Positions 35,807-62,239 of a DNA stretch of 64,000 nucleotides are shown here, piece by piece; position 1 is the first letter of the stretch, and each line of letters starts with the position of its first letter. Under the pieces are notes generated by a model that saw only the letters and a list, made by a program, of their open reading frames with translations, was not told the origin of the DNA and ran no database searches. Both the position numbers and the translations under genes were made by a program. The stretch covers positions 852,335-916,334 of the forward strand of contig OZ241996.1 in NCBI GenBank assembly GCA_965204535.1. The letters run 5' to 3'. Origin of the DNA: a bacterium. GTDB lineage: Bacteria > UBA8248.

Positions 35807-35830
35807 CTCATGGAGAATTAGAGTAGCAAC

Positions 35831-41402: not shown

Positions 41403-44400
41403 GTTCTATTGGCCAACCCGAACGCGCGACGCAAGATAGGCTCATCTCTTTGTTCCGCGACCAACTGGGCTACCGCTATGTCGGCGACTGGAATGACCGT
41501 GACGGCAACAGCAACATCGAGAAGCATCTGCTCTCGGCATGGTTGTCCAAGTGCGGATACACGTCGGGGCAGATCAACGCGGCTCTCCACAAACTCCGCA
41601 TTGAAGCAGACAACCACAGTCGTGCGCTTTACAGCAACAACGAGGTTGTCTACAGCCTGTTGCGCTACGGCGTGCCCGTGAAGACCGAGGCGGACAAGCC
41701 TACGGAGACCGTCCACCTCATCAATTGGAAAGAGCCGGAAGAGAACGATTTTGCCATTGCCGAGGAAGTGACGCTCAAGGGCAACCAGGAACGACGGCCC
41801 GATATCGTGTTGTATGTGAATGGCATTGCTGTCGGCGTTCTCGAATTGAAGAATAGTCGCGTGAGTATCGGCGAAGGTATTCGCCAAAATCTTTCGAATC
41901 AGCTACCGGAATTCAATGCCTGGTTCTTCAACACAGTACAGTTCATTTTCGCCGGTAACGACTCCGAGGGTTTGCGGTACGGCACTATCGGGACGCCGGA
42001 AAAGTTCTTCCTCAAGTGGAAGGAAGACGAACAAGATAATAGTCTCCTCAAGCTCGATAAATACCTGCTCAAGATGTGCCGTAAGGATCGCCTGCTCGAG
42101 TTGATGCACGATTTTGTGCTCTTCGATGGCGGGGTAAAGAAATTACCGCGACCTCACCAGTTTTTCGGCGTAAAGGCGGCGCAGGCGCAAACAGACCAAA
42201 AGAAAGGCGGAATCATTTGGCACACGCAGGGCAGCGGCAAGAGCATCGTAATGGTGCTGCTTGCGAAGTGGATTCTGGAAAATTACCCGAACGCTAGGAT
42301 CGCCATCATCACTGACCGAGACGAGTTGGATAAACAGATACAAAACGTGTTTACTAGGGCAGGCATCGAAATCGCAAGAAGTTCCAGCGGACGCAACTTG
42401 ATTGCCCAACTCGGTCAGGCTACACCGCGCCTGTTGTGCTCACTGGTGCACAAATTCGGTCGCAAGGACGTGGATAATTTCGATGCCTATATCAAGGAGT
42501 TGGAAGCCCAACCTAGCCCGACTGTAGGCGAAGTATTTGTGTTCGTGGACGAGTGCCACCGTACCCAGAGTGGCAAGCTACATCGCACAATGAAAGCAAT
42601 TATGCCAAACGCTGTGTTTATCGGCTTTACCGGTACTCCCCTGCTCAAGAAGGATGCCCAGACCAGTCTGGAAGTGTTTGGCGGCTACATTCACACCTAC
42701 AAGTTCAGCGAGGGCGTCGAGGACGGCGTCGTACTCGACTTGGTCTATGAGGCGCGGGACATCGATCAGCGTCTTGGTTCCGAAGACAAGATCGATGCTT
42801 GGTTCGAGGCCAAGACCAAAGGACTGAACGACTGGCAGAAAAACGAGTTGAAGAAACAATGGGGCACAAAACAGATCGTACTCAGTTCTAAATCGCGCAT
42901 GGATCGGGTGGTGAACGACATCATCTTCGATTTCAGCATTAAACCACGTCTTTCTAACAATCGTGGCAATGCCATTCTTGTGGCATCCAGTATCTACGAA
43001 GCTTGCAAGTACTTCTCGCTGTTCCAGGATACATCGTTCAAAGACCTGTGCGCCGTCGTGACATCCTATAACCCGCTTGCCAGGGATGTAACGCTGGAGG
43101 AAACGGGCGCTAACACCGAAACCGAAAAGCAATTCATCTACAACACGTATACCGAGTTACTGAAGGAAGTCGACGCAAAACCCGGAATGACCAAGACAGA
43201 GACTTACGAAGAACGTGCCAAGACGCTGTTTACAAAAGAACCAGCAAATATGAAGCTTCTAGTTGTGGTGGACAAACTGCTCACGGGCTTTGACGCACCG
43301 CCATGTTCCTATCTCTACATTGACAAGTCGATGCAAGACCACGGCTTGTTCCAAGCTATATGCCGGACCAACCGCATCGATGGCGAGGATAAGGATTTCG
43401 GTTACATCGTCGACTACAAGGACTTGTTCAAAAAAGTGGAAAACGCAATAGCGGTATATTCTTCTGAGTTGGACCACAGCACGGGTGGAGATGAGCCGGA
43501 GGTGCTTCTGCAGGACCGTTTGAAGAAGGGCAGGGAACGCCTCGATATTGCGATCGAGGCGCTTCTCTCGCTCTGCGAGCCGGTCGAGCCGCCCAAGGAT
43601 GAGTTGCAGCACATACATTATTTCTGTGGCAACACCGAAATCGCCTCCGATCTAAAGGAACGGGAACCGCAGCGGAATGCACTTTATCAGGCGACCGTGG
43701 CGCTCGTCCGTGCCTATGCCAATATCGCCGACGAACTGGAAATGATTGGCTACAGTAATGATGACATCAACCGCATCAAGCAACAGATTGATCATTCTCT
43801 AACTGTTCGGGATATTATCCGCAGAGCCAGTGGCGAGACGCTCGACCTCAAGGCATACGAGGCTGACATGCGGCATCTCATTGACACCTATATTGAGGCA
43901 GACGAGCCGCGAAAGATTTCTCCCTTCGATAGCATGAGCCTAATAGAGTTAATCGTGAAAATCGGGGTCGATAATGCGATCGAAACGCAACTCGGGGGGT
44001 TGAAGATAAACAAGAACGCGGTTGCTGAGACAATAGAGAACAACGTTCGCAGCACAATCCTGAAGGCGCATCTAACCGACCCGGCCTATTACAACAAGAT
44101 GTCGACTCTACTCGACGAAATTATCGCGGCCCGAAAAGCAAAGGCCGTCGAGTATGAAGAATATTTGCGGCGTATCGCGGAACTGGCGAAGAAGGTCGAT
44201 AAAGGCAAAGATGCTGACACACCCAGGGTTCTGGATACACCAGGCAAGCGAGCTCTTTGGAACAACTTCGAGCGAAACGAAACACTGGCGCTCAAAGTCG
44301 ATGCGGCCGTAAAAGAAGTACGCTCCGATGACTGGCGTGGCATTCAGGCTCGTGAGCAAATTATCAAATCAGCTTTGTACGGTATCTTGCAGGATGAGGT

Positions 44401-44449
44401 GGAAGTTGAGCGAATTTTCTTGGTCATCAAGGCGCAAAGAGAGTACTGA
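41399..44449 (+). CDS. hsdR: type I restriction enzyme R subunit
   Basis: The start is at MSSIGQPE (ATG 41399). The nuclease core is RPDIVLYVNGIAVGVLELKNS. Helicase motifs are HTQGSGKS and FVDECHRTQ. Confidence 0.9.
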   Translation: MSSIGQPERATQDRLISLFRDQLGYRYVGDWNDRDGNSNIEKHLLSAWLSKCGYTSGQINAALHKLRIEADNHSRALYSNNEVVYSLLRYGVPVKTEADKPTETVHLINWKEPEENDFAIAEEVTLKGNQERRPDIVLYVNGIAVGVLELKNSRVSIGEGIRQNLSNQLPEFNAWFFNTVQFIFAGNDSEGLRYGTIGTPEKFFLKWKEDEQDNSLLKLDKYLLKMCRKDRLLELMHDFVLFDGGVKKLPRPHQFFGVKAAQAQTDQKKGGIIWHTQGSGKSIVMVLLAKWILENYPNARIAIITDRDELDKQIQNVFTRAGIEIARSSSGRNLIAQLGQATPRLLCSLVHKFGRKDVDNFDAYIKELEAQPSPTVGEVFVFVDECHRTQSGKLHRTMKAIMPNAVFIGFTGTPLLKKDAQTSLEVFGGYIHTYKFSEGVEDGVVLDLVYEARDIDQRLGSEDKIDAWFEAKTKGLNDWQKNELKKQWGTKQIVLSSKSRMDRVVNDIIFDFSIKPRLSNNRGNAILVASSIYEACKYFSLFQDTSFKDLCAVVTSYNPLARDVTLEETGANTETEKQFIYNTYTELLKEVDAKPGMTKTETYEERAKTLFTKEPANMKLLVVVDKLLTGFDAPPCSYLYIDKSMQDHGLFQAICRTNRIDGEDKDFGYIVDYKDLFKKVENAIAVYSSELDHSTGGDEPEVLLQDRLKKGRERLDIAIEALLSLCEPVEPPKDELQHIHYFCGNTEIASDLKEREPQRNALYQATVALVRAYANIADELEMIGYSNDDINRIKQQIDHSLTVRDIIRRASGETLDLKAYEADMRHLIDTYIEADEPRKISPFDSMSLIELIVKIGVDNAIETQLGGLKINKNAVAETIENNVRSTILKAHLTDPAYYNKMSTLLDEIIAARKAKAVEYEEYLRRIAELAKKVDKGKDADTPRVLDTPGKRALWNNFERNETLALKVDAAVKEVRSDDWRGIQAREQIIKSALYGILQDEVEVERIFLVIKAQREY

Positions 44450-45180
44450 TGAACGCCCAACTCGATCTTAGTGGGGTAGAAGTGGATGTCATCTTCAAAG
44501 ACATCAAGAATGTTCATCTCAGTGTTTATCCTCCCACTGGCCGGGTACATATCTCCGCCCCTAAACATATGAGCCTTGACACCGTTCGCGTGTTCGCTGT
44601 TTCCAAACTTGCCTGGATCAAAAAACAACAGAAAAAACTCCAGGAACAAGAACGCGAAACAGCGCGCGACTATATCGACCGGGAAAGTCACTATGTTTGG
44701 GGCAAGCGCTATTTACTCAAGATTGTCGAAGTGAATGATGCGCCGTCGGTTGAATTGAAGGCCAGCAACATGATTCTGCGGGTTCGTCCTGGCACCAGCG
44801 CCGAGGCTAGAGCAGCCATTATTTCTAAGTGGTACCGTAAGCAGATAAAGGCGATTATTCCGGATCTTCTCGCGAAGTGGGAGCCGATCATAGGCGTAAA
44901 CGTTGAGCGTGTTTTTGTGCAAAAAATGAAGACGAAATGGGGAAGTTGCAATCCCGATGGGCATAGTCTTCGCCTCAATACCGATTTGGCCAAGAGACCG
45001 TTAAATTACCTTGAGTACATCCTCGTGCACGAGCTAACACACCTACTTGAAAAGACACACAACGACCGCTTTACTACACTGATGGACCGATTCATGCCGC
45101 AGTGGCGAGAGTATCGAGAAATTCTCAATACAGGCCTGCTCACGCACGAGGATTGGGCTACAAAACCTAACCAACGATAG
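44449..45180 (+). CDS. M48/DUF45 (YgjP-like) zinc metallopeptidase
   Basis: The zinc motif is HELTHLLEKTHNDRF. The ATG overlaps the hsdR stop (TGATG at 44447-44451). Confidence 0.8.
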   Translation: MNAQLDLSGVEVDVIFKDIKNVHLSVYPPTGRVHISAPKHMSLDTVRVFAVSKLAWIKKQQKKLQEQERETARDYIDRESHYVWGKRYLLKIVEVNDAPSVELKASNMILRVRPGTSAEARAAIISKWYRKQIKAIIPDLLAKWEPIIGVNVERVFVQKMKTKWGSCNPDGHSLRLNTDLAKRPLNYLEYILVHELTHLLEKTHNDRFTTLMDRFMPQWREYREILNTGLLTHEDWATKPNQR

Positions 45181-45379
45181 CTCTGACTGTCGGCACGAAC
45201 TGAGTAGTACGCGTGACACAACAATCATAGTCAATCTGGGGATCACTGTAGACAAGCCGTCACGAGCCGAACTTTGGGGGGCGGCCGACAGAAACCCGCC
45301 AGGGCACGCAGTCTGGAATTGCCGCAGGCGGAGTTTGCACCGTCTTTATGGATTGCACAAAGTCAAGTCAGCATGACCA

Positions 45380-46639
45380 TTATAGATTCATCAAAAGCCA
45401 ATTAGTAATTTTATGGACAGCAGAAAACGATTCGTAAAATCCGCCATGCCATATGGCCACACGATTCATCCTATCCGTTTCGAAGCTCTCTTGCTCAATA
45501 AAGTCGCTGACTGTGCGACTATCCTCTGATGGCCATCCAGAGCCATCATGAAAAGTCGTATTTAAAGTATGTTTTAGCTCCCATGACCAGAATTCATGAA
45601 TCTCGAGACGTGCAGTCCTGTATCTCTGCGGGCATGATTTTTCCAAAATAACAACCTGTGGGAGAGATCTGTCATGATGATCAGGTCCTTCAAACCTGTT
45701 CCGAAGCACTCGGTTGACGTGCAGGTCGCCAAATCCGTATCCGGCAATCAGGATCGCATCGGCTTCATGCACGTGTCTGACAAGGGTCGAATAGAATGTT
45801 TGATATGGCTCGGCCAGGAGCTGATCCAGTTTGAATCCACCTGCGATCAATGTTGTCAGAGGTATTGATCTGAAATCCTGCGCCATATCGACTTCCGGAA
45901 TGCCGGAATCCGTAAATGCTTCTCCAAGTTCTTCTTTCCAGACAATCCACGGCCTGCTTATTTCGTCGCTGATGCAATGATGAACAGAGCCGTGAATGTG
46001 GTAGATGAATCCCCACTCTCGGCGCTGGCTAACGCATAACGGATCAAAGAATCCAGAACAATCAAATCCTTTGAATGCCTCAGGCCATGCAGTATGGGCG
46101 GCAGTATCGTAGTTCAGGTTGTATATGCCGAGTTTAAAGCGCTCTTGGAGTTTGTGAAAGAAATTCATATAGTCGGAAAATGCTGGCTTACGAGTATCAA
46201 GCGCTTTGCTTAGTTTCCGCATGTGGTCGGCCAGCTTCTCAAAAAGAAAAGTATGTTGATCCAGCACTCGTTTCCTGGCGGCGTACTGGTCAGAACAGTC
46301 ATGCAGCCAATCGAGCTCGCAAACCGGTCTACCGTCCCTTACCGCATCAGTGAAAGGGGTTCCGAAGGGAGGAGGCGACAGCCAACTCGCCAGTATATTC
46401 ATCTCACCCAGCACGCGCTCGTAATTCGGGCGAATGCCGTAATGGTTTGTTCCGTAATAGCGCTCGAGCGCATCCCAAAGTACGTTGAACACATCGCGCC
46501 CTGCATCATTGGGTGGTTCCCGTTCCCATTTTCGACTCCAGCGCTTCATCTGTTTATCGATGTTTTCAACGCTCGGCATACCGCAGGGGATGGAGCTTCC
46601 TGCTCCCAAGATGACGAGGAGTTTCGGCTTTCTGTCCAT
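45380..46639 (-). CDS. stand-alone SIR2-like (SIR2_2) domain protein
   Basis: Motifs are LLVILGAGSSIPCGMPS, FIYHIHGSVHH and ILIAGYGFGDLHVNRVL. There is no partner gene on the same strand. Confidence 0.6.
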   Translation of the reverse strand: MDRKPKLLVILGAGSSIPCGMPSVENIDKQMKRWSRKWEREPPNDAGRDVFNVLWDALERYYGTNHYGIRPNYERVLGEMNILASWLSPPPFGTPFTDAVRDGRPVCELDWLHDCSDQYAARKRVLDQHTFLFEKLADHMRKLSKALDTRKPAFSDYMNFFHKLQERFKLGIYNLNYDTAAHTAWPEAFKGFDCSGFFDPLCVSQRREWGFIYHIHGSVHHCISDEISRPWIVWKEELGEAFTDSGIPEVDMAQDFRSIPLTTLIAGGFKLDQLLAEPYQTFYSTLVRHVHEADAILIAGYGFGDLHVNRVLRNRFEGPDHHDRSLPQVVILEKSCPQRYRTARLEIHEFWSWELKHTLNTTFHDGSGWPSEDSRTVSDFIEQESFETDRMNRVAIWHGGFYESFSAVHKITNWLLMNL

Positions 46640-48265: not shown

Positions 48266-48585
48266 CTAGTTCCTCTAGCTAGAGATATAGTTGCCCATGA
48301 ACCTCGTATGTGGACGCGCCAGTTGATGCAAACATGTCGCCTGAAATTTCGGGGCAGTGAATAGTCGCAGTCGTATAATGGTCCGATGTGAATTAAACAG
48401 TGGGGTGAGCGCGGCTTAAAAAGCATCAGCTCAAACCGACTAAGCCACACAAAATCAATAAATGCCTCCGGCATTAGGGACAATATCACCACGTGACCGA
48501 ATGATTACCGACAGTCGTAAGCGTTCGGGCGGGCCGTGATGGTAGTGCCTTGAAGCAGTAGTTCGGGCCGGAATGGGGGATGATT

Positions 48586-49458
48586 TTACCGGTTGAGGAC
48601 TTGCTTCCAGTTTCTGCGCAACGGTCGTAGCCAGATGTCCTTTTTCGGTTGGTCTCGTTTCGTGTATCTGTCGTAGCGTCCACGCCCCTGGGTCATACCG
48701 ACGTGAATCCACCCCGATGCCCTGTAGACGGCGCCGGTGTAGCGCGGCGTCTCGACGAAGGTCTCGACGAGGACGGGTGTCGTGCCATAGCGCTCGGTCC
48801 AGTCCTCGGGCAGGCGCCTGCGGATGATGGCGAGGAGGTGTGAGCCGAGGTTGAGGATCCTGATCCATGGCAGGATGAGGAACCTCGGGTTGTCGACCAC
48901 GAGGGGGAGGTTCTTCTCGCGCAGCTGCGGCGTCCAGCCGATGAAGCTGTCGCGCGGGGCGAGCTTCCACGCGGCGGTGGAGAAGCCGAGCATGGCGAGG
49001 GGCCTGCCGCCCCGGTCGTGGACGGCGTAGCGCATCTGCGCGCCGACGAGGGTCTTGTAGCCGAGGTAGTGGTAGCGGGCGACGAACTCGTTCCAGAGCC
49101 TGCCCTCGCGGGTTCCGCGCACGGCGACGCGCATATCGAGGGGGCGGACTTCGTCGAGGGTCTCAGGCGCCGGGATGAGGGGAGGTTCGGTGTCGGGTCC
49201 GAAGACGATCGGCCCGGGCCGGTTCTGGCGCCACTTCGGTGGGGGCAGCGTGATCAGGCCGTCCTTGTGCATGGCCAGCATAGTCACCCGGGCCATCATG
49301 TCCTTGAGTCCGCCGTCGGGCTTGTACCAGCCGATTCGGCGGCAGAACTCCTTCGATAGCGCATGGCGGTTGAGCGCAGGTGGACCTGCGATCAGTTCGC
49401 GCAGCAGCGCCATCTCTTCCGTCGTGAAGTCGCGTCCGTGGTAGCGGCACTCGGTCAC
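48586..49458 (-). CDS. DUF4338 domain protein (DruA-like domain) carried inside the IS
   Basis: The 290-aa product has the C-terminal motif RYTGAVYRASGWIHVGMTQGRGRYDR, as I recall for DUF4338. It starts 4 nt after the transposase stop. Confidence 0.6.
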   Translation of the reverse strand: MTECRYHGRDFTTEEMALLRELIAGPPALNRHALSKEFCRRIGWYKPDGGLKDMMARVTMLAMHKDGLITLPPPKWRQNRPGPIVFGPDTEPPLIPAPETLDEVRPLDMRVAVRGTREGRLWNEFVARYHYLGYKTLVGAQMRYAVHDRGGRPLAMLGFSTAAWKLAPRDSFIGWTPQLREKNLPLVVDNPRFLILPWIRILNLGSHLLAIIRRRLPEDWTERYGTTPVLVETFVETPRYTGAVYRASGWIHVGMTQGRGRYDRYTKRDQPKKDIWLRPLRRNWKQVLNR

Positions 49459-49462
49459 GGCG

Positions 49463-51817
49463 TCATCCCGGCGCCGTGAGGGCGCGCCTGCGCTCCGTGC
49501 TCATCGACCAGGGCAGCCACGCGGAGAGGTCCCCGGGCGCCCGGCCGCCGTTCTCCGCGCAGGCCGTGAGCCATGCCTCCAGCCAGCGGAGCGGGTCGAC
49601 CCCGTTCGACGCGAGGGTTCCGAGGACCGAGTACATCATCGCCGTAAACCTGGCGCCGGCCTCGCTGTCGGAGCCGAACGAGAGCCGCCTGCCGATCACA
49701 GGGCCCCGAAGCGCACGTTCGCTGGCGTTGTTATCCATCGGCACCGAGGGGCGTTCGATGAAGACGCTCAGCCCCTCGCGGTGGTTCAGCAGCGAGCGAA
49801 GCGCCTTGCCCTCGCGCGCCTGCGCGGGCAGAGCGGCCATCTCCCGTCGGGCCTGCGCGAACAGGTCCTTGAGCGCCTTCTTCAATTCGTCGTGCGCCGC
49901 GTCGAACGCCGCATCCTGGCGTTCGACGCCCGGGTCGTAACTGGCCAGGCGCGCCTCGTTCAGGCGGTAAAGCAAGGCAATCCGCTCGATCCATCTCTCG
50001 CACCACGGCGTCAGCCGCTCATCGCCGGCGGCGCAGTGGATATAATCGCGCCGGACGTGACTCCAGCACCATGCGAGAGTCACCAGACCCCCGGGAATGC
50101 GCGCCAGCTTCTTGTAGGCGCTGTAGCGGTCGCAGACGATGACCGTATGGGAGCCGGCCGCGCCGAACAGCTTCATCGCGACCTCAGCACTCCGCGAGGG
50201 GTCGACGTGGAAGTAGACGGAGTCTGCGCTGACCGAGGTCCACAGCCAGGCGCGGCTCGAGCGTCCTTGTTCGCGAAGCGACTGAACGCGCCACGTCGTC
50301 TCGTCCCCGTGACGCACCGCCGCTTCGTTCTGGCGGTCGAGGATCGCCGCAGCCAGCGGCTCGAAGAGCGGCGTGAAGCGGTGCGTGCTGTCGCCCAGTG
50401 TGCCTGCAGAGACCGGAAGCCCCTGGTCGGAGAGCCACGCGGCGACCCGGCGCAGCGGGCGGAAGCAGGCGTAGCGCTCGAACAGGAAGCGCGCCCACAC
50501 GCTCGTCCCGTAAGGCGTGCCCGCGAACAGGCGCGGCGCGGCGGGCGCCGACACTTCCACCGGAGACGACGCGCACGCGCATCTCCTGCGCCATCTCGGA
50601 CGGCGGATGACGCGCTTGTGGGCCGAGACTTCGATCTCGAAGATGGAGGAGACCTCGGCGCCATTGGCCACGTAGGGCTTCCCGCAACCGGCGCAGACGC
50701 GCGCACCGGCCGGCGGGTTGCGAACTTCGGTCCTCTCATCGAGCGCGGGCCGCGGGGTGCGGCCATGACCGGCGGCGCCGGGTTGCCGGCCGCGCCTGCG
50801 CTCCGAGCGCGGCCTCTCCTGCCGTTCGCTCTTGCGCCCGAACAGTCTTCTCGCCAGCACCGCTCCGGTGGCGCGAAGCTTCGCGAGATCGGCCTCCAGC
50901 CGCGCCCGGATGGTCTCTGACTTGCGGAGCGCCCTGCGAAGACGCCCGTTCTCCCTCGACAGCGACCTGAGCGCCGTCTTCTGGCGCCGCGACCTCCCCA
51001 GGGCCTTGCGCAGTTCCTCATCTGCACGAGACGGCGACTTCGAGCGCGCCGCCTCGAGAGCGCGCAGCAACCGCGCCTTCAGCCGTTCGGTCGCAATGCC
51101 TACGGCCCCCAGGGAGACTTCAAGACGGTAGACCTCCGCAGACAGCGACTCGACCACCTCCGCCTGGTCGCGCAATCGCCTCAACTTCCTGTAGAGCCCG
51201 ATGGCCTCCTCGTCCAGGCTCCGAATGGTCTCCTTGTCGGTCGCCGACTTCTGCTTCTCCAGGGCCAGACGATCTTCGAGCCGGGCAACTTCCTTCTCCC
51301 GCCGGCCGACCTCCTTGCGCAGGGCATGAATCGTCTCCTTGCGCTCCTCCAGGGCCTTGCGCAGCCGCCCCGCCTCCCCCGGCGACGGCACGCCCGAGAG
51401 CTCCTTGCGAAGCCGGACGACCTCCATGCGCAGCGACATGAGCGGGCTGCGCTTGCGCGGATCGACCCCCGCCTCCGCAAGCAGCTTCTCCAGCCGCGCC
51501 ACTTCCGCCTTGAGCGACAGCGCGTCCTTCGCCGCGCGGCGGGCTTCCTTCGCCTCCCCGGCGGCCGCCTCGAGCTTCTTCCGGCTGGCGTCGAGATGCC
51601 GCTTCAGCTTGCCCGCACGGGAGCGGGAATCCACTTCCGCCCAACGCAACTCCTCGCAGCGCGCCTCCGCCGCCTCCGCGCGCGCACGCTCGCGCTCGTA
51701 CAGCGAACGCCAGTACGCCTCTGCGGTTGTGGACAACCCGGGGGAATGAGGCCATGGCTCATCCGGCCTCTCGGCCAACGCCAACTCCGTCTCGACAGCT
51801 TCTGCGCGAATCTTCAT
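49463..51817 (-). CDS. IS66-family transposase (TnpC-like) with an unusually long N-terminal coiled coil
   Basis: Features are the Zn finger CAGCGKPY, DDE region motifs HGDETTWRV, VCDRYSAYK and CWSHVRRDY, plus DNNASERALR and the C-terminal VDPLRWLEAWL. About 380 aa of Arg/Glu/Leu-rich heptad-like sequence precede these. Confidence 0.85.
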   Translation of the reverse strand: MKIRAEAVETELALAERPDEPWPHSPGLSTTAEAYWRSLYERERARAEAAEARCEELRWAEVDSRSRAGKLKRHLDASRKKLEAAAGEAKEARRAAKDALSLKAEVARLEKLLAEAGVDPRKRSPLMSLRMEVVRLRKELSGVPSPGEAGRLRKALEERKETIHALRKEVGRREKEVARLEDRLALEKQKSATDKETIRSLDEEAIGLYRKLRRLRDQAEVVESLSAEVYRLEVSLGAVGIATERLKARLLRALEAARSKSPSRADEELRKALGRSRRQKTALRSLSRENGRLRRALRKSETIRARLEADLAKLRATGAVLARRLFGRKSERQERPRSERRRGRQPGAAGHGRTPRPALDERTEVRNPPAGARVCAGCGKPYVANGAEVSSIFEIEVSAHKRVIRRPRWRRRCACASSPVEVSAPAAPRLFAGTPYGTSVWARFLFERYACFRPLRRVAAWLSDQGLPVSAGTLGDSTHRFTPLFEPLAAAILDRQNEAAVRHGDETTWRVQSLREQGRSSRAWLWTSVSADSVYFHVDPSRSAEVAMKLFGAAGSHTVIVCDRYSAYKKLARIPGGLVTLAWCWSHVRRDYIHCAAGDERLTPWCERWIERIALLYRLNEARLASYDPGVERQDAAFDAAHDELKKALKDLFAQARREMAALPAQAREGKALRSLLNHREGLSVFIERPSVPMDNNASERALRGPVIGRRLSFGSDSEAGARFTAMMYSVLGTLASNGVDPLRWLEAWLTACAENGGRAPGDLSAWLPWSMSTERRRALTAPG

Positions 51818-51929
51818 GCCGACATCATTAGCACATGTCGAATCGCGTTACCAGTCGCCCGGGAAAATTCTATCCGATGGAGGCGATGCGCCCGGCGCCG
51901 GGTCCATCACGGCCCGCCCGAACGCTTAC

Positions 51930-51937
51930 CGACAGTC
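51930..51937. repeat. 8-bp spacer cgacagtc between the two IS66 copies, identical to the outer flanking repeats
   Basis: cgacagtc occurs at 48509-48516, 51930-51937 and 55351-55358. IS66-family elements make 8-bp target duplications. Confidence 0.9.
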
Positions 51938-52006
51938 GTAAGCGTTCGGGCGGGCCGTGATGGTAGTGCCTTGAAGCAGTAGTTCGGGCCGGAATGGGGG
52001 ATGATT

Positions 52007-52879
52007 TTACCGGTTGAGGACTTGCTTCCAGTTTCTGCGCAACGGTCGTAGCCAGATGTCCTTTTTCGGTTGGTCTCGTTTCGTGTATCTGTCGTAGCGT
52101 CCACGCCCCTGGGTCATACCGACGTGAATCCACCCCGATGCCCTGTAGACGGCGCCGGTGTAGCGCGGCGTCTCGACGAAGGTCTCGACGAGGACGGGTG
52201 TCGTGCCATAGCGCTCGGTCCAGTCCTCGGGCAGGCGCCTGCGGATGATGGCGAGGAGGTGTGAGCCGAGGTTGAGGATCCTGATCCATGGCAGGATGAG
52301 GAACCTCGGGTTGTCGACCACGAGGGGGAGGTTCTTCTCGCGCAGCTGCGGCGTCCAGCCGATGAAGCTGTCGCGCGGGGCGAGCTTCCACGCGGCGGTG
52401 GAGAAGCCGAGCATGGCGAGGGGCCTGCCGCCCCGGTCGTGGACGGCGTAGCGCATCTGCGCGCCGACGAGGGTCTTGTAGCCGAGGTAGTGGTAGCGGG
52501 CGACGAACTCGTTCCAGAGCCTGCCCTCGCGGGTTCCGCGCACGGCGACGCGCATATCGAGGGGGCGGACTTCGTCGAGGGTCTCAGGCGCCGGGATGAG
52601 GGGAGGTTCGGTGTCGGGTCCGAAGACGATCGGCCCGGGCCGGTTCTGGCGCCACTTCGGTGGGGGCAGCGTGATCAGGCCGTCCTTGTGCATGGCCAGC
52701 ATAGTCACCCGGGCCATCATGTCCTTGAGTCCGCCGTCGGGCTTGTACCAGCCGATTCGGCGGCAGAACTCCTTCGATAGCGCATGGCGGTTGAGCGCAG
52801 GTGGACCTGCGATCAGTTCGCGCAGCAGCGCCATCTCTTCCGTCGTGAAGTCGCGTCCGTGGTAGCGGCACTCGGTCAC
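52007..52879 (-). CDS. DUF4338 domain protein (copy 2)
   Basis: Translation is identical to 48586-49458. Confidence 0.6.
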   Translation of the reverse strand: MTECRYHGRDFTTEEMALLRELIAGPPALNRHALSKEFCRRIGWYKPDGGLKDMMARVTMLAMHKDGLITLPPPKWRQNRPGPIVFGPDTEPPLIPAPETLDEVRPLDMRVAVRGTREGRLWNEFVARYHYLGYKTLVGAQMRYAVHDRGGRPLAMLGFSTAAWKLAPRDSFIGWTPQLREKNLPLVVDNPRFLILPWIRILNLGSHLLAIIRRRLPEDWTERYGTTPVLVETFVETPRYTGAVYRASGWIHVGMTQGRGRYDRYTKRDQPKKDIWLRPLRRNWKQVLNR

Positions 52880-52883
52880 GGCG

Positions 52884-55238
52884 TCATCCCGGCGCCGTGA
52901 GGGCGCGCCTGCGCTCCGTGCTCATCGACCAGGGCAGCCACGCGGAGAGGTCCCCGGGCGCCCGGCCGCCGTTCTCCGCGCAGGCCGTGAGCCATGCCTC
53001 CAGCCAGCGGAGCGGGTCGACCCCGTTCGACGCGAGGGTTCCGAGGACCGAGTACATCATCGCCGTAAACCTGGCGCCGGCCTCGCTGTCGGAGCCGAAC
53101 GAGAGCCGCCTGCCGATCACAGGGCCCCGAAGCGCACGTTCGCTGGCGTTGTTATCCATCGGCACCGAGGGGCGTTCGATGAAGACGCTCAGCCCCTCGC
53201 GGTGGTTCAGCAGCGAGCGAAGCGCCTTGCCCTCGCGCGCCTGCGCGGGCAGAGCGGCCATCTCCCGTCGGGCCTGCGCGAACAGGTCCTTGAGCGCCTT
53301 CTTCAATTCGTCGTGCGCCGCGTCGAACGCCGCATCCTGGCGTTCGACGCCCGGGTCGTAACTGGCCAGGCGCGCCTCGTTCAGGCGGTAAAGCAAGGCA
53401 ATCCGCTCGATCCATCTCTCGCACCACGGCGTCAGCCGCTCATCGCCGGCGGCGCAGTGGATATAATCGCGCCGGACGTGACTCCAGCACCATGCGAGAG
53501 TCACCAGACCCCCGGGAATGCGCGCCAGCTTCTTGTAGGCGCTGTAGCGGTCGCAGACGATGACCGTATGGGAGCCGGCCGCGCCGAACAGCTTCATCGC
53601 GACCTCAGCACTCCGCGAGGGGTCGACGTGGAAGTAGACGGAGTCTGCGCTGACCGAGGTCCACAGCCAGGCGCGGCTCGAGCGTCCTTGTTCGCGAAGC
53701 GACTGAACGCGCCACGTCGTCTCGTCCCCGTGACGCACCGCCGCTTCGTTCTGGCGGTCGAGGATCGCCGCAGCCAGCGGCTCGAAGAGCGGCGTGAAGC
53801 GGTGCGTGCTGTCGCCCAGTGTGCCTGCAGAGACCGGAAGCCCCTGGTCGGAGAGCCACGCGGCGACCCGGCGCAGCGGGCGGAAGCAGGCGTAGCGCTC
53901 GAACAGGAAGCGCGCCCACACGCTCGTCCCGTAAGGCGTGCCCGCGAACAGGCGCGGCGCGGCGGGCGCCGACACTTCCACCGGAGACGACGCGCACGCG
54001 CATCTCCTGCGCCATCTCGGACGGCGGATGACGCGCTTGTGGGCCGAGACTTCGATCTCGAAGATGGAGGAGACCTCGGCGCCATTGGCCACGTAGGGCT
54101 TCCCGCAACCGGCGCAGACGCGCGCACCGGCCGGCGGGTTGCGAACTTCGGTCCTCTCATCGAGCGCGGGCCGCGGGGTGCGGCCATGACCGGCGGCGCC
54201 GGGTTGCCGGCCGCGCCTGCGCTCCGAGCGCGGCCTCTCCTGCCGTTCGCTCTTGCGCCCGAACAGTCTTCTCGCCAGCACCGCTCCGGTGGCGCGAAGC
54301 TTCGCGAGATCGGCCTCCAGCCGCGCCCGGATGGTCTCTGACTTGCGGAGCGCCCTGCGAAGACGCCCGTTCTCCCTCGACAGCGACCTGAGCGCCGTCT
54401 TCTGGCGCCGCGACCTCCCCAGGGCCTTGCGCAGTTCCTCATCTGCACGAGACGGCGACTTCGAGCGCGCCGCCTCGAGAGCGCGCAGCAACCGCGCCTT
54501 CAGCCGTTCGGTCGCAATGCCTACGGCCCCCAGGGAGACTTCAAGACGGTAGACCTCCGCAGACAGCGACTCGACCACCTCCGCCTGGTCGCGCAATCGC
54601 CTCAACTTCCTGTAGAGCCCGATGGCCTCCTCGTCCAGGCTCCGAATGGTCTCCTTGTCGGTCGCCGACTTCTGCTTCTCCAGGGCCAGACGATCTTCGA
54701 GCCGGGCAACTTCCTTCTCCCGCCGGCCGACCTCCTTGCGCAGGGCATGAATCGTCTCCTTGCGCTCCTCCAGGGCCTTGCGCAGCCGCCCCGCCTCCCC
54801 CGGCGACGGCACGCCCGAGAGCTCCTTGCGAAGCCGGACGACCTCCATGCGCAGCGACATGAGCGGGCTGCGCTTGCGCGGATCGACCCCCGCCTCCGCA
54901 AGCAGCTTCTCCAGCCGCGCCACTTCCGCCTTGAGCGACAGCGCGTCCTTCGCCGCGCGGCGGGCTTCCTTCGCCTCCCCGGCGGCCGCCTCGAGCTTCT
55001 TCCGGCTGGCGTCGAGATGCCGCTTCAGCTTGCCCGCACGGGAGCGGGAATCCACTTCCGCCCAACGCAACTCCTCGCAGCGCGCCTCCGCCGCCTCCGC
55101 GCGCGCACGCTCGCGCTCGTACAGCGAACGCCAGTACGCCTCTGCGGTTGTGGACAACCCGGGGGAATGAGGCCATGGCTCATCCGGCCTCTCGGCCAAC
55201 GCCAACTCCGTCTCGACAGCTTCTGCGCGAATCTTCAT
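52884..55238 (-). CDS. IS66-family transposase (copy 2)
   Basis: Translation is identical to 49463-51817. Confidence 0.85.
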   Translation of the reverse strand: MKIRAEAVETELALAERPDEPWPHSPGLSTTAEAYWRSLYERERARAEAAEARCEELRWAEVDSRSRAGKLKRHLDASRKKLEAAAGEAKEARRAAKDALSLKAEVARLEKLLAEAGVDPRKRSPLMSLRMEVVRLRKELSGVPSPGEAGRLRKALEERKETIHALRKEVGRREKEVARLEDRLALEKQKSATDKETIRSLDEEAIGLYRKLRRLRDQAEVVESLSAEVYRLEVSLGAVGIATERLKARLLRALEAARSKSPSRADEELRKALGRSRRQKTALRSLSRENGRLRRALRKSETIRARLEADLAKLRATGAVLARRLFGRKSERQERPRSERRRGRQPGAAGHGRTPRPALDERTEVRNPPAGARVCAGCGKPYVANGAEVSSIFEIEVSAHKRVIRRPRWRRRCACASSPVEVSAPAAPRLFAGTPYGTSVWARFLFERYACFRPLRRVAAWLSDQGLPVSAGTLGDSTHRFTPLFEPLAAAILDRQNEAAVRHGDETTWRVQSLREQGRSSRAWLWTSVSADSVYFHVDPSRSAEVAMKLFGAAGSHTVIVCDRYSAYKKLARIPGGLVTLAWCWSHVRRDYIHCAAGDERLTPWCERWIERIALLYRLNEARLASYDPGVERQDAAFDAAHDELKKALKDLFAQARREMAALPAQAREGKALRSLLNHREGLSVFIERPSVPMDNNASERALRGPVIGRRLSFGSDSEAGARFTAMMYSVLGTLASNGVDPLRWLEAWLTACAENGGRAPGDLSAWLPWSMSTERRRALTAPG

Positions 55239-55775
55239 GCCGACATCATTAGCACATGTCGAATCGCGTTACCAGTCGCCCGGGAAAATTCTATCCGATG
55301 GAGGCGATGCGCCCGGCGCCGGGTCCATCACGGCCCGCCCGAACGCTTACCGACAGTCACACTCAGGGATACGCAGACGTTAGATTTTCCTTGTTTCCGT
55401 TTTGATTACTTTCTGTAGTAGACGACTTCGAGACGAGATAGAGGATAATGAATCTTTCTCAATGATATCAATACGATAGAAATATTTTACAGCCACCGGA
55501 AATCCCCCACTGCCTGAAAACACGCGAAAGACTGGTGAATCAAGGAACTGAGCGTCCGGGCTAGCCTACACCCGATGTAGAAAACCCATAATCCAAGTAC
55601 AAACCTAAAAAAGCTAGCAGCAAACCCGTGGCCAAGGCGAATGTGACCTAGACGAAGATGAGCGACCTTCCAAAGATAGCAGGGCGCTAGTCTTTAGGAA
55701 TAGACAGGTTCTGGTTACGTCCTTTAGCGGGCAAGAAAACACAATACAGTCGCTTTTCACATTCAAGACGTAAAA

Positions 55776-58284: not shown

Positions 58285-60081
58285 CTAGTTATCATCGCCG
58301 CTCGGCGTATCAGGATCGCCCGATGTTTCAGGTCGGCTTTCTGCCTGATTGGCGCCCCGATCCTGTAGCATTTTTATGATCGCAGGATCATTATTGTGCT
58401 TTGCCGCCCAGTCCAAGGGTGTTTCGCCGTCATCATTCCGCGCTTTGACGTCGGCGCCCCTGTCCAGAAGTAGCTTTACAACCGCAGAATTCTTATTCCA
58501 TTTCGCCGCGCTATGCAGAGGCACCCAGCCCCATTTATTATGTGCATTCACATCAGCGCCTCGATCCAAAAGTAGCTCTACGACTGCAGGATTTCGATTC
58601 AATCCCGCCGCGATGTGCAGAGGCGTGCTACCAAATCGAGTCCGAGCATGCACATCGGCACCCTTATCTAGAAGTAGTTCCACGACCTCAGGATTTTTAT
58701 TGCGCGCCACTGCATAATGTATGGGTAACCGTCCTAAGTAACCCTTTTCATTCACGTTAGCTCCCCGACGGATCAACTCCATGGCGACTGCGGGATTTTC
58801 ATTGGTACCCGACGCTATATGCAACGCATTCTTATAAGTTGATTCGAACTTTTGTTTGTATCGATACGAAATTACATCGTTTAGATTCGCGCCGCGCTCC
58901 AACAGCAGAGCAATTACTTCCGGGTATTTGTTGTATCTCGCGGCAATATGCAGTGGCTTATATAATTCCATATCACTTGGATGCACCTCATGCGGAATCT
59001 CATCTCTTGCATCGATATCGGCGCCAAGATCCAGTAGCGCCTTGATAACGGCGGGGCCTTCGTTCGCGCGCAAGGCCTTGTGCAGTCCACGGGCGCCGCC
59101 GTATTTCTTCCGGGCGACTCTCGCAGCCGTCAGGCCCTCCGCCGTCCTGCCCTTCGGTCCCTTGATCGAGGGGTCGGCCCCCGCCTTCGTCAACAAATCG
59201 ACGACCGCCGAGTGCCCGTGCGCTGCCGCCATGAACAGCGCAGTCGCGCCGTCCGCCGCGCGGGCGTCGACTTCCGCCTTCGCCTCGATCAGCGACTCGA
59301 CCATCGGCGCGTAGCCCTTGTTCGCCGCGTGCATCAGCGCCGTCCAGCCGCGAGCGTCGCGCGCGTTCACGTCCGCACCCGCCTCAAGCGCCGCCTTGAG
59401 CGCATTGACATCTCCTGCTAAGACCGCGCGTTGCAGGACATCGGGACGCACCTTAGGGCGGGAAGGCACTCTCGCGCTGGTTCCCGCACGTCGGCCTTTC
59501 GCAGCGGCCCGCATGGCACGCAACCCGCTAGGCGTCAGCGTATCCACGGGCGGCAGTCCCGCATCTCTCAGAAACCTCCCGTAGGCCTTCGCCGTGCGCT
59601 CGTTCCAGCGGCCATCGACCGGTCCCGGCTCGTAGCCGAGCGCCGCCAGCAACTCTTTCGCCTCGCGGATCGCCCGTGGGGGCGGTGGAGACGAAGCCTT
59701 CTTTATCTCCCCACCGCCCGGCCGCCACGAGCGAGCGCGTTCCTGAGCAGACGCAACCTGCTGCGGCGTCATCTTCGCCGCCAGGGCGTCGCGCTCTTTC
59801 GCCGCTTCCATCTCGCCCCGGCCCGCCGCCAGGTTGAACCACATGTGCGCCACAACGTAATCCTGCGGAGCGCCCACTCCCCGCATAAAAAGACGCCCGA
59901 GCGCCAGCATCGCCCGCCTGTCACCCTCATTCGCCGCCGCGCGCCACTCCTTGAGCGCCTCGGCGGGTTTCCCCGCGTCCCACGCGCGCTTGCCCACTGC
60001 GTAGTCCGCCTGTGCGGGCAATGCGCAGATGAGCATCAAGGCCAGCGCCAGCATCAGCACCCGTAGTGTGTGTCGAGTCAT
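58285..60081 (-). CDS. secreted Sel1-repeat / peptidoglycan-binding / ankyrin-repeat protein
   Basis: The start is at MTRHTLRVLMLALALMLICALPAQA. Sel1 region: AMLALGRLFMRGVGAPQDYVVAHMWFNLAA. PG_binding_1-like region: AKELLAALGYEPGPVDGRWNERTAKAY. At least 8 ANK repeats follow. Confidence 0.8.
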   Translation of the reverse strand: MTRHTLRVLMLALALMLICALPAQADYAVGKRAWDAGKPAEALKEWRAAANEGDRRAMLALGRLFMRGVGAPQDYVVAHMWFNLAAGRGEMEAAKERDALAAKMTPQQVASAQERARSWRPGGGEIKKASSPPPPRAIREAKELLAALGYEPGPVDGRWNERTAKAYGRFLRDAGLPPVDTLTPSGLRAMRAAAKGRRAGTSARVPSRPKVRPDVLQRAVLAGDVNALKAALEAGADVNARDARGWTALMHAANKGYAPMVESLIEAKAEVDARAADGATALFMAAAHGHSAVVDLLTKAGADPSIKGPKGRTAEGLTAARVARKKYGGARGLHKALRANEGPAVIKALLDLGADIDARDEIPHEVHPSDMELYKPLHIAARYNKYPEVIALLLERGANLNDVISYRYKQKFESTYKNALHIASGTNENPAVAMELIRRGANVNEKGYLGRLPIHYAVARNKNPEVVELLLDKGADVHARTRFGSTPLHIAAGLNRNPAVVELLLDRGADVNAHNKWGWVPLHSAAKWNKNSAVVKLLLDRGADVKARNDDGETPLDWAAKHNNDPAIIKMLQDRGANQAESRPETSGDPDTPSGDDN

Positions 60082-60328
60082 GTTCTCTCCCTCTGCTCTC
60101 GTAGAATGAAACTCTTCACAATGCCATCCCACGACGTTTTGAGGTCTTACTCCATATACGGAAGTTCCTTGTTTCCAAAGAACATAACGAATCTATTCCA
60201 TGATCCCGCGAGTCACAACTGAACGCATGGTCGTTAATGTCTGATATGGCTATGCGCGCCCAAATCAAACCGTGGCAAACCGAACTGGGGCTTCGTCCCC
60301 TAAACCCCCGAGGTAAAGAGGCGAAGAT

Positions 60329-62239
60329 TCAAGGTCCGAGCGTCCGGGCTACGCGAAACCCGGAAGTGTTGAAACGGAGTCCGTACCCTAACTTGCCGCG
60401 GATAGCAGAGAAGAGGCTCAACGGATCGCTGGACCAGGAACCGCCGCGCAGAACGCGGCGCGAGCAATCGCCGTTCGTCCACGCGCGCCCGTCCAACGGC
60501 GCGCCCGCGTAGCGTGCGTTCCAACAGTCCACAACCCACTCCCACACGTTGCCCAGCACGTCGTGAAGACCGAACCCGTTCGTAGAAAACGATCCCGCGG
60601 GCGCCGTATGAACGAAACCGTCTCGGCAAGACGCCACTCCGTGTCCACCGCGCCAGTTACTGTACTGCTTCTTAAGCGTCCCGTCGGCCCCGTTCGCGTG
60701 GGTGCACTGTGCCAATGTGTCATCTCCCCAGTAGCGCGACGTGCGCGTCCATCCACGCGCCGCGTATTCCCATTCCGCCTCACTCAATAATCGGTATCTT
60801 TCCCCCGTTTTGTCCGACAGCCACGCCACGTACGCCTTCGCGTCATCCCAATTTACACACACGACAGGGTCTAAGTTCGTCTGGGAAAAACCTGGATCGC
60901 GCCACGAGCGTGCGGCGTCTTTTTTCCACTTACCATCATAAATATAACACCCGCTATCCATGTCGCGGCCCGTCATACGAACAAAGGCGCCAAACTCGCG
61001 CCTCGTCACCTCGTGTTTGCCAATCGCGAAGGGTTTCGGAATCGTCACGCGGTGGCGGGGGCCTGCATACTCCCACGATGAAGAACCCATCATGAAAGAA
61101 CCGTAGGGCACGACCACCATCTCCGGGCATTCCGGGCAGTCTCGAAATACCTTGCCTTTCGGCCACCTACGTTTTAGGTCTTCCGCTGCTTCAACTTGCG
61201 CCCACGTCTTTCCCGCCAGCAGAGCGAGAACGCCGGGACCCTCTCCCTTCCCTCTCGCCACCTCCGCAGTGCCGTATCTCCTGCGCGCCACATCCATAGA
61301 CGACTTTCCCTTCGGTCCCTTGATCGATGGATCCGCTCTCCCCTTCATCAGCAACTCAATGACTTCGGAGTACCCGTGCACCGCCGCCATGAAAAGGGCC
61401 GTAGCGCCGTCCGCGGCGCGTTCGTCGACCTTCGCCTTCGCTTCGATCAGCGACTCGACCATCGACGCGTAGCCTTTGTTCGCCGCGTGCATCAGCGCCG
61501 TCCAGCCGCGAGCGTCGCGCGCGTTCACATCCGCACCCGCCGCAAGCGCTGCCTTTAGCCCGTCGACATTCCCCGCCAGCACCGCTCGGTGCAAGGCATC
61601 GGGACGCACCTTAGGGCGGGATGGCACTCTCGCGCTGTTTCCCGCACGTCGGCCTTTCGCAGCGGCCCGCATGGCACGCAACCCGCTAGGCGTCAACGTA
61701 TCCCCCGGCGGCAGGCCCGCATCGCGCAGAAACCCCGCATAGGCCTTCGCCGTGCGCTCGTTCCAGCGACCATCGAGAGTACCCGGCTTGTAACCCAGCG
61801 CCGCCAGCAACTCTTTCGCCTCGCGGATCGCCCGTGGGGGAGGTGAAGCCGAAGCAGATTTTCTCTTTTCTCCACCCGGCCGCCACGAGCGAGCGCGTTC
61901 CTGAGCAGACGCAACCTGCTGCGGCGTCATTTTCGCCGCCAGGGCGTCGCGCTCTTTCACCGCTTCCATCTCGCCCCGGCCCGCCGCCAAGTTGAACCAC
62001 ATGTGCGCCACAACGTAATCCTGCGGAGCGCCCACTCCCCGCATAAAAAGACGCCCGAGCGCCAGCATCGCCCGCCTGTCGCCCGAATTCGCCGCCGCGC
62101 GCCACTCTCTGAGCGCCTCGGCGGGCCTTCCCGCGTCCCATGCCCGCTTGCCCGCAGCGTAGTTCGCCTGTGCGGGCAATGCGCAAATGAGCATAAAAGC
62201 TAACGCCGGTATCACCACCCGCAGAGCATGTCGAATCAT
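60329..62239 (-). CDS. secreted Sel1 / peptidoglycan-binding / ankyrin protein fused to an FGE-sulfatase (SUMF1-like) domain
   Basis: The N-terminal 300 aa are paralogous to 58285-60081. The C-terminus (MVVVPYGSFMMGS...VCVNWDDAKAYVAWLS...RLLSEAEWEYAAR...GNVWEWV...RVLRGGSW) is typical of the FGE-sulfatase fold. Confidence 0.8.
   Translation of the reverse strand: MIRHALRVVIPALAFMLICALPAQANYAAGKRAWDAGRPAEALREWRAAANSGDRRAMLALGRLFMRGVGAPQDYVVAHMWFNLAAGRGEMEAVKERDALAAKMTPQQVASAQERARSWRPGGEKRKSASASPPPRAIREAKELLAALGYKPGTLDGRWNERTAKAYAGFLRDAGLPPGDTLTPSGLRAMRAAAKGRRAGNSARVPSRPKVRPDALHRAVLAGNVDGLKAALAAGADVNARDARGWTALMHAANKGYASMVESLIEAKAKVDERAADGATALFMAAVHGYSEVIELLMKGRADPSIKGPKGKSSMDVARRRYGTAEVARGKGEGPGVLALLAGKTWAQVEAAEDLKRRWPKGKVFRDCPECPEMVVVPYGSFMMGSSSWEYAGPRHRVTIPKPFAIGKHEVTRREFGAFVRMTGRDMDSGCYIYDGKWKKDAARSWRDPGFSQTNLDPVVCVNWDDAKAYVAWLSDKTGERYRLLSEAEWEYAARGWTRTSRYWGDDTLAQCTHANGADGTLKKQYSNWRGGHGVASCRDGFVHTAPAGSFSTNGFGLHDVLGNVWEWVVDCWNARYAGAPLDGRAWTNGDCSRRVLRGGSWSSDPLSLFSAIRGKLGYGLRFNTSGFRVARTLGP

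Follow-up and report, generated by a model that had tools for sequence, protein, structure and literature searches.

The window, i.e. the whole 64 kb stretch of DNA that was analysed, contains a small head-to-tail array of IS66-family ends with the overall layout soloIR-8bp-IS-8bp-IS-8bp. Two copies of a 3413-bp element follow a solitary, diverged terminal inverted repeat (IR) of the same type, and every interval between neighbouring ends is 8 bp. The array structure is established. We infer that this particular dimer arose by serial insertion, each copy entering the 8 bp that abut a resident end, a reading on which we are evenly divided.

Structure of the array

Copy 1 (48517-51929) and copy 2 (51938-55350) are both 3413 bp long, carry their genes on the minus strand and are 100% identical, with 0 mismatches. 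A preliminary description of this DNA had reported a perfect head-to-tail dimer, and the base-by-base comparison of the copies confirms it. The element is bounded by perfect terminal IRs of 26 bp, GTAAGCGTTCGGGCGGGCCGTGATGG, which begin with GTAAGCG and are found at both ends of both copies (48517-48542 and 51904-51929 in copy 1). A 20-nt IR sequence has exactly 4 exact occurrences in the window, when 0.01 would be expected by chance. The 8-mer CGACAGTC stands on the plus strand before copy 1 (48509-48516, the left target duplication), between the abutted ends (51930-51937) and after copy 2 (55351-55358, the right target duplication). All three 8-mers are identical. Hence, the spacer is the target duplication, as the same description had stated and as arrays of IR-adjacent insertions require. 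As an 8-mer, CGACAGTC turns up 4 times in the window where 2.4 matches are expected, and is thus not rare; its significance lies in its presence at all three boundaries. The middle copy separates two 26-nt arms by 8 nt, giving an IRR-8 bp-IRL abutted junction at 51904-51963 that is predicted to fold, as single-stranded DNA, into a hairpin of -38.9 kcal/mol.

The perfect repeat spans 48505-51937 and 51926-55358, with a period of 3421 bp. It is longer than the element because TTAC plus CGACAGTC (12 bp) is common to all three boundaries, and the 12-bp direct repeat previously noticed around one copy is therefore real. The TTAC extension beside CGACAGTC is no coincidence. It is the tip of a solo, diverged IS66-type terminal IR, GTAATCATTCGGTCACGTGGTGAT, located at 48485-48508 on the minus strand. 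Its tip faces the array, and exactly 8 bp separate it from copy 1 at the left end of the latter. This sequence has 0 mismatches to GTAANCNTTCGGN7GTGAT, the IR profile of the family, a fit expected 0.04 times per window. It shares 17 of 26 bases with the IR of the element; the background averages about 7, and other single-copy insertions give values of 2-12. A search for an older full element to the left of the solo IR found no further IS homology upstream.

Gene content and family placement

Each copy encodes two genes on the minus strand. In copy 1, these are a transposase of 784 aa (49463-51817) and a DUF4338/DruA-like accessory gene of 290 aa (48586-49458), which begins 4 nt past the transposase stop codon; their counterparts in copy 2 lie at 52884-55238 and 52007-52879. 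The transposase has an IS66-type DDE domain at residues 345-752 and matches PF03050 (E=1.6e-56; 192 bits for a cut-off of 23) and NF033517 (E=5e-85; 286 bits for a cut-off of 180). With this domain, IRs starting with GTAAGCG and an 8-bp target-site duplication, the element belongs to the IS66 family, and the initial assignment holds. The N-terminal extension of the transposase (~340 residues) gives a weak, below-cutoff match to the centrosomin N-terminal (Cnn_1N) motif. We also considered the plus-strand ORFs as canonical IS66 tnpA/B/C and rejected them: the family matches are on minus-strand ORFs only, and the plus-strand ones are antisense ORFs of an element with 69% G+C. Canonical tnpA and tnpB are absent from the element, which gave no other Pfam or NCBIfam match.

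The accessory protein matches PF14236 (E=2e-38). The two-gene layout of transposase and DruA-like gene is present in every retrieved relative whose contig reaches far enough downstream. A role as a Druantia component was rejected, since the match to the PADLOC DruA model is weak (21.8 bits only) and the gene is always coupled to the transposase. No relative of this protein was found in the PDB, and the searchable literature held nothing relevant on DUF4338 in IS66 elements.

The element resembles the canonical IS66 group (tnpA-tnpB-tnpC, about 2.5 kb) and the ISBst12 group (a single ORF, about 1.5 kb) in its DDE domain, GTAAGCG termini and 8-bp duplications. It differs in the lack of tnpA and tnpB, the long N-terminal part of its 784-aa transposase, the DUF4338/DruA-like gene and its size of 3.4 kb. 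As it has two genes only, it is not a member of the canonical group. Nor does it conform to the ISBst12 group, defined by a single transposase ORF in an element of about 1.4-1.6 kb, given its 3413 bp and conserved second gene. Among plasmid-borne IS66 transposases, even the nearest do not exceed 33% identity to that of the window. The latter is the same as public proteins P0121 and P0122, and its exact sequence is found on at least two public contigs; hence, identical donor copies exist elsewhere.

Abutted ends in related elements

We scanned metagenomes for an IS66 right end followed by a left end, using the pattern GAACGCTTAC-N(0-30)-GTAAGCGTTC. This revealed 108 loci, 46 of them with a spacer of exactly 8 nt (binomial p=2.6e-39). 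Homology to IS66 transposases was found beside the junction at 38 of the 46 loci with 8 nt, but at only 6 of the 62 others. Put differently, 38 of 44 IS-associated junctions have 8 nt (p about 1e-50), and the recurrent 8-bp abutment in the family is established. A control scan of viral contigs returned 2 chance matches only. Where both sides of a pair were assembled, the partners are mostly 70-89% identical (L121 reaches 98% over 281 nt), and the orientations are head-to-tail (12 pairs), tail-to-tail (4) and head-to-head (2). Homologous exchange or circle re-integration cannot yield such pairs, because they are non-identical or inverted. Non-identical partners in either orientation, far above chance, are what one expects of arrays formed by insertion beside a resident end.

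At one locus, the order of events can be read from the flanks. L155 comes from a sample in which Mb-scale contigs were assembled as well, and it has two elements of the transposase+DruA subgroup that are 81.5% identical and 7 nt apart. Its flanks reconstruct the empty site GGACG[CCCGTAGA]CAGG. IS_B came first, and IS_A later entered 7 nt of the IS_B duplication plus the first base of the IS_B IR. Both duplications are intact and extend 1 nt into the tip of the resident IR. The flanks show the later element entering at the tip of an earlier one of different sequence, so that serial insertion at a resident IR tip is established in a relative of the window element. L137 is a heterologous head-to-tail pair, 14 bp apart, with one member 89.5% identical to the window element, and L028 and L086 each have an 8-bp junction adjoining a relative that is 65-79% identical to the window transposase. 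Within the transposase+DruA subgroup, abutted pairs occur at 2 of 32 retrieved places.

The spacer agrees with the outer flank at 8/8 positions in L031, at 7/8 in L038 and L066, and at 8/8 with a 1-nt offset in L073. It is unlike either outer flank in four pairs from short-read metagenomes (L032, L041, L055 and L115), in which flank linkage through repeats is unreliable, so that the disagreement weighs little for or against insertion. Single insertions in relatives have 8-bp duplications without a consensus, and their flanks are not IR-like. Target-sequence specificity was thus rejected as the sole cause of abutment, and the lack of consensus makes chance re-use of one 8-mer unlikely.

The tendency is not family-wide. 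An IS66 element of Ralstonia (L148) shares the end motif of the window element and has a duplication of 8 bp, and in Ralstonia megaplasmids none of 183 end matches (34 records) to a canonical three-ORF IS66 belonged to an abutted pair. Scanning GTDB representatives with a 22-nt IR retrieved only relatives that are 67-73% identical, and no dimers. We also searched for an empty site or a single-copy allele of the window locus. There were no plasmid matches, and exact-protein queries found no record for the transposase, its DruA-like partner, either flank gene, P0001, P0161 or P0122.

Origin of the pair

Under serial insertion, an element would first have inserted next to a resident family IR, in the 8 bp adjoining its tip, and so duplicated them. 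Its own end would then have presented the same target, an IR tip followed by CGACAGTC. A second copy, probably donated by the neighbouring copy or by an identical copy from another part of the genome, would have entered the duplicated 8-mer and re-created CGACAGTC on the far side. The transposase may be guided by the resident IR rather than by the 8-bp sequence alone, by analogy with IR-targeting in IS30 and IS911. In the 'targeted' pathway of IS911, insertion occurs right beside a resident IR and leaves abutted ends. IS30 behaves similarly, its new copy landing directly beside a resident IR or IR-like sequence (PMC9333248). The window array, which starts at a solo IR, and the L155 insertion at a resident IR tip are similar to these cases. 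They differ in family and transposase, and in looking like normal insertions with an 8-bp duplication and not like single-strand transfer or conversion. It is important to stress what weighs against serial insertion: unequal exchange at the 12-bp repeat would give a product of the same sequence, as would recombination with a circle of IS plus 8 bp, and the 100% identity of the copies is also predicted by homology-based duplication.

Such a duplication, by slippage or unequal sister-chromatid exchange, was an origin raised in the preliminary description, and we consider it unlikely. It would have taken place at the 12-bp repeat TTACCGACAGTC around a single soloIR-CGACAGTC-IS-CGACAGTC insertion. 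This perfect repeat, within 32 nt that are 78% alike, does bracket one copy. Moreover, the copies are direct and 100% identical and have exactly one repeat unit at their join, the textbook product of unequal exchange. Exchange or slippage at short direct repeats gives the same repeat-unit-repeat-unit-repeat arrangement of identical units. Yet this signature of tandem duplication (direct, identical units, each boundary bearing a single repeat copy) does not discriminate, because serial insertion yields the same sequence. Exchange between repeats of 8-12 bp that are 3.4 kb apart is rare. Homology-driven duplication also predicts neither a solo IR at exactly 8 bp from the element, which it leaves unexplained, nor the family-wide surplus of 8-bp junctions in pairs that are non-identical or inverted. 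As it can make neither such pairs nor the L155 flanks, a transposition origin is better supported.

Transposition might also have produced the pair through an IR-IR junction of the copy-out-paste-in type, with 8 nt of flank as the spacer, either via a circle and a resident copy or by IS30-style dimerisation on sister chromosomes. The pair would in that case represent a transposition intermediate, possibly reactive, fixed in the chromosome. The window pair does resemble (IS30)2, (IS21)2 of R68.45 and the dimers and minicircles of IS911 and IS2, in which head-to-tail copies have right and left ends a few bp apart. Its right and left ends abut across a short, fixed spacer, as at copy-out-paste-in junctions, and the junction is a perfect palindrome, as in IS30-type IR-IR junctions. 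In IS911, the junction spacer has the length of the duplication (3 bp). The same equality holds for IS30, with 2 bp for both (PMC9333248), and an ISBst12-group member has been reported to move by copy-and-paste (PMC12898284). Three short-read contigs (L031, L045 and L074) run from an IS end through 8 nt into the start of an identical IS, as expected from circles or dimers. The differences are nonetheless considerable. The window spacer is the full 8-bp target duplication, which is also present on both outer sides, whereas IS30/IS911-type spacers have 2-3 bp. Junctions of IS30 are always IRL-IRR, whereas inverted pairs do occur in the IS66 family. The strong junction promoter of copy-out-paste-in elements (-35 in one end, -10 in the other), which sets IS30-type dimers apart from the window pair, was not detected: a scan with the sigma-70 consensus, which may not be that of a host using other promoter types, found nothing at the junction, and the sole sigma-70-like match is in the right flank (55471-55442). 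We found no relevant report of IS66 circles or dimers in the searchable literature, and in a mobilome study ISEc22, of the IS66 family, had 0 circle-junction reads while circles were detected for seven other IS types (PMC5001619). Finally, the tail-to-tail and head-to-head pairs with 8 nt, and the intact duplications at both L155 elements, suit plain insertion better. We thus regard the junction pathway as quite improbable for the window pair.

The pair could instead be an assembly artefact, the assembler having written a perfect duplicate of one copy or of a mixed population. The copies are 100% identical, the source is seemingly a metagenome-type assembly and the relatives come from MAGs. 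However, the pair lies mid-window in 64 kb. A protein 100% identical to one from the flank and the exact transposase are encoded on public contigs of 1.59 and 2.97 Mb; this suggests an assembly from long reads, which would cross the 6.8 kb. Such junctions also occur in dozens of independent assemblies, including relatives from samples with Mb-scale contigs (L137 and L155), and in de Bruijn graph contigs, where they are impossible without junction-spanning reads. An artefact is therefore improbable.

Serial insertion at a resident end bears on a family whose transposition mechanism has been described as insufficiently characterised (PMC12898284). We tentatively propose that IS66-family transposases, at least in the ISBst12-like and transposase+DruA subgroups, either use the tip of a resident IR as a landmark, abutting ends at the exact 8-bp stagger, or form IS30-like IR-IR junctions whose spacer has the length of the duplication; we rate this proposal as somewhat short of even. 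The rule that the distance between abutted family ends is exactly the duplication length of 8 bp, for identical, diverged and inverted partners alike, gives a testable hypothesis. If ends of kin are indeed targeted, the window dimer would be the product of an undescribed step, with the solo IR as its natural bait. The dimer is a modest but useful clue to how this poorly understood family moves. Tandem IS pairs that match perfectly mislead assembly and annotation, and they are hot spots of recombination and amplification. The tandem pair described here sits within a mobile defence island, where arrays of this kind can drive rearrangement.

Structure of the array and its solo end

The preliminary description had read the feature as a perfect head-to-tail dimer. 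A base-by-base comparison of its two 3413-bp copies (48517-51929 and 51938-55350) bears this out, with 0 differing positions. The shared 8-bp spacer is equally accurate, as CGACAGTC occupies all three array boundaries, and the reported extension by "ttac" is real. Because the left flank shares TTAC+CGACAGTC with both the junction and the right end, the perfect repeat (48505-51937 and 51926-55358, period 3421 bp) is longer than the element. Both copies terminate in 26-bp perfect inverted repeats (IRs), GTAAGCGTTCGGGCGGGCCGTGATGG, and the 20-nt IR occurs exactly 4 times in the window (0.01 expected). The two arms that meet at the junction make up a perfect palindrome (26+26 bp; -38.9 kcal/mol when single-stranded), and a search across the junction for a sigma-70-like promoter found none. 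The G+C content is 67-71% in the element and 44-53% in the surrounding intergenic stretch.

Directly left of the array lies a solo IR (48485-48508, minus strand, GTAATCATTCGGTCACGTGGTGAT). It fits the family IR profile GTAANCNTTCGGN7GTGAT with 0 mismatches (0.04 expected per window) and is identical to the element IR at 17/26 positions (background mean about 7), whereas the corresponding site yields 2-12 matches when about 50 other insertions of relatives are compared. Its tip is exactly 8 bp from copy 1, and the structure is therefore soloIR-CGACAGTC-IS-CGACAGTC-IS-CGACAGTC; the "ttac" extension arises because the solo IR precedes CGACAGTC. We found no element homology further upstream of the solo IR. 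The feature is an IS66-family tandem pair of recent formation that looks real and begins at a solo IR. Extra or solo right-end IRs also lie near full elements at four loci of relatives (L154 4869-4911, L137 4488-4513, L149 9156-9181 and L164 5354-5379), and solo ends beside elements seem recurrent in this subgroup.

A two-gene subgroup of IS66 elements

All genes of the element are on the minus strand; the ORFs on the plus strand are antisense, in an element rich in G+C, and were rejected. The transposase (49463-51817, 784 aa; PF03050 E=1.6e-56, NF033517 E=5e-85) has an IS66-type DDE domain at residues 345-752, after an N-terminal extension of about 340 residues. A DUF4338/DruA-like gene (48586-49458 in copy 1, 52007-52879 in copy 2; 290 aa, PF14236 E=2e-38) begins 4 nt downstream of it, and tnpA and tnpB are absent from the element. 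The DUF4338/DruA domain is otherwise known from Druantia defence systems. Here it is a transposon accessory. Its match to the PADLOC DruA model is weak (21.8 bits), and we found neither a solved-structure relative nor literature on this gene of IS66 elements.

A protein search retrieved 1261 relatives (E<=1e-20), the best 120 listed being mostly of 700-890 aa. In the retrieved loci (L136-L168), a DruA-like gene follows the long IS66 transposase directly or overlaps it by 4 nt. This layout is present in every retrieved relative whose contig reaches far enough downstream, which places the element in a large and coherent two-gene subgroup. Among plasmid-borne IS66 transposases, identity to that of the window reaches 33% at most. 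Public data contain the exact transposase sequence as P0121 (784 aa) and P0122 (771 aa, TTG start), on at least two contigs, the largest of 2.97 Mb; the element is therefore multicopy, with identical copies elsewhere. A right-flank protein (P0161) is found with 100% identity on a 1.59-Mb contig. From these contig sizes, the source of the window looks like a long-read assembly.

Abutted ends and the origin of the dimer

Tandem pairs occur at 2/32 retrieved places of the subgroup. In L137, two head-to-tail elements with 86.9% mutual identity are 14 bp apart, the second being 89.5% identical to the window element, with its duplication (GACGACGT) intact; to the left is an IR-like remnant. In L155, IS_A (1604-4904, duplication CCGTAGAG) and IS_B (4912-8171, duplication CCCGTAGA) share 81.5% identity and are separated by 7 nt. 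The empty site GGACG[CCCGTAGA]CAGG can be rebuilt from the three flanks only with IS_B inserted first, and the target of IS_A consists of 7 nt of the left duplication of IS_B and the first G of its IR. L155 is thus direct evidence, at the sequence level, of serial insertion, the later element having landed at the tip of a non-identical relative already resident there. In L154 a solo right end lies 17 nt from an element, and in L028 and L086 an 8-nt junction adjoins a relative whose identity to the window transposase is 65-79%.

We scanned metagenomes with the pattern GAACGCTTAC-N(0-30)-GTAAGCGTTC, i.e. right end, spacer and left end. The spacer was exactly 8 nt in 46 of the 108 loci (L028-L135) and 9 nt in 10, the other lengths being seen at 1-7 loci each (8-nt excess, binomial p=2.6e-39). 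An IS66-family transposase adjoins the junction (tblastn) in 38/46 of the 8-nt loci vs 6/62 of the others; hence 38/44 junctions with an adjacent transposase have an 8-nt spacer, the remaining six having 7, 9, 9, 9, 16 and 29 nt. The rest of the loci with spacers other than 8 nt are chance matches, as are the two hits that the same pattern gave in viral contigs, the control.

The majority of 8-nt loci hold ISBst12-like single-ORF elements of about 1.5 kb. Partners that are both assembled are usually different elements (70-89% identical), arranged head-to-tail (12), tail-to-tail (4) or head-to-head (2); identical partners are seen as k-mer-limited contigs. The spacer equals the outer duplication in L031 (GAAAAACC), agrees with an outer flank at 7/8 positions in L038 and L066, 6/8 in L050 and 8/8 with a 1-nt offset in L073, and matches neither flank in L032, L041, L055 and L115. 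These comparisons carry little weight because short-read contigs link flanks across repeats unreliably. A central A/T tract recurs in many spacers (GAAAAACC, GCTTTTTC, CCTTTTTG and others), suggesting that ISBst12-like elements have a target preference. In some 16-nt spacers an 8-mer is duplicated, exactly in L046 (GTCTTTTTGTCTTTTT) and L110 (ACTGTTATACTGTTAT) and nearly so in L099 (AAATAAGTGAATAAGT), giving IS-X-X-IS instead of IS-X-IS; IS66 transposase homology lies beside the junction in L046 and is absent there in L099 and L110. The 8-nt flanks of the right element of L032 and the left element of L132 are reverse complements at 7/8 positions rather than direct repeats, which could mark an inversion or intramolecular event.

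Scanning GTDB representative genomes with the 22-nt IR gave 25 stretches from long-read MAGs (Bryobacterales, Thalassobaculaceae). Their elements are relatives with 67-73% identity, all single, some being MITE-like derivatives, and their 8-bp duplications show no consensus. MITE-like sequences with the same terminal IRs have intact 8-bp duplications in L024 (3169-4153, 985 bp) and L025 (5964-6198, 235 bp) and an imperfect one in L010 (1044-2340, 1297 bp); L025 also carries a cluster of several IR-like sequences. A Ralstonia IS66 of the canonical three-ORF type (2552 bp, duplication GGACAATC) gave 183 end matches in 34 megaplasmid records, none of them with abutted ends, so the 8-nt abutting tendency is not universal in the IS66 family.

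Four processes would yield the same window sequence: serial insertion, exchange, circle formation or end-joining, and assembler error. In serial insertion, the second element would have entered the 8 bp next to a resident end. The excess of 8-nt abutments with non-identical or inverted partners is explained only by this process or by a transposase-made junction, and serial insertion also accounts for the flanks of L155 and for the distance of exactly 8 bp to the solo IR. We therefore rank it first, with roughly even confidence. The preliminary description, accurate as to structure and partly supported in its interpretation, had named slippage or unequal exchange as a possible origin. The 12-bp repeat that these would use is present, and we consider exchange at it unlikely. 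An assembler error seems quite improbable. Least probable is a circle of IS plus 8 bp, or IS30-like end-joining, followed by recombination; it would provide a transposase-made junction, and a mobilome study found no circle junctions for ISEc22 (PMC5001619). Under serial insertion, the transposase may read the resident IR or merely re-use a good 8-mer; judging from the sequences, we favour guidance by the IR, because the duplications lack any consensus.

IS30, IS21, IS911 and IS2 are the classic cases of tandem dimers and IR-IR junctions, and IS30 and IS911 those of IR-targeting. The window pair resembles these dimers in its tandem copies with abutted ends, here in the IS66 family. For IS66, neither dimers nor circles nor end-targeting turned up in the literature library searched, whose coverage is incomplete, and an earlier description elsewhere, e.g. 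in ISfinder or TnPedia, is possible. The IS30 transposase recognises a resident IR as target (PMC9333248), and the IS66-family mechanism was still called insufficiently characterised in 2026 (PMC12898284). While the dimer alone is a curiosity, the family-wide 8-nt rule to which it points is a testable clue to IS66 transposition.

Surroundings of the array

The window is a mosaic mobile and defence region. It encodes a TrwC-type relaxase (1599-4823), two tyrosine recombinases (10866-14343) and an IS5/DDE_Tnp_1 transposase (26250-27734), and has the appearance of a segment from an integrative or conjugative element, its G+C forming a mosaic of 0.44-0.71. A defence island (29204-46639) comprises a Septu PtuA-like ATPase (30037-31329), type I restriction-modification genes hsdM/hsdS/hsdR (35831-44449), of which hsdS and hsdR are separated by a GmrSD/HEC-05-like gene, as well as a YgjP-like peptidase and a SIR2-domain protein (45380-46639). 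Long inverted repeats (6019-6992/25153-26126, 974 nt, 90%; 5792-6011/28009-28228, 220 nt, 91%) bracket about 18-22 kb and may be composite-element ends or delimit an invertible segment. A perfect 44-nt direct repeat (27938-27981 and 27996-28039, spacing 58 nt) adjoins the IS5-like transposase. Paralogous ankyrin/Sel1/FGE-sulfatase-domain genes form an array at 58285-63928, with repeat blocks 83-91% identical. This array and the occurrence of relatives in MAGs of Bryobacterales, Thalassobaculaceae and Nitrospinae may jointly point to a host-associated bacterium.
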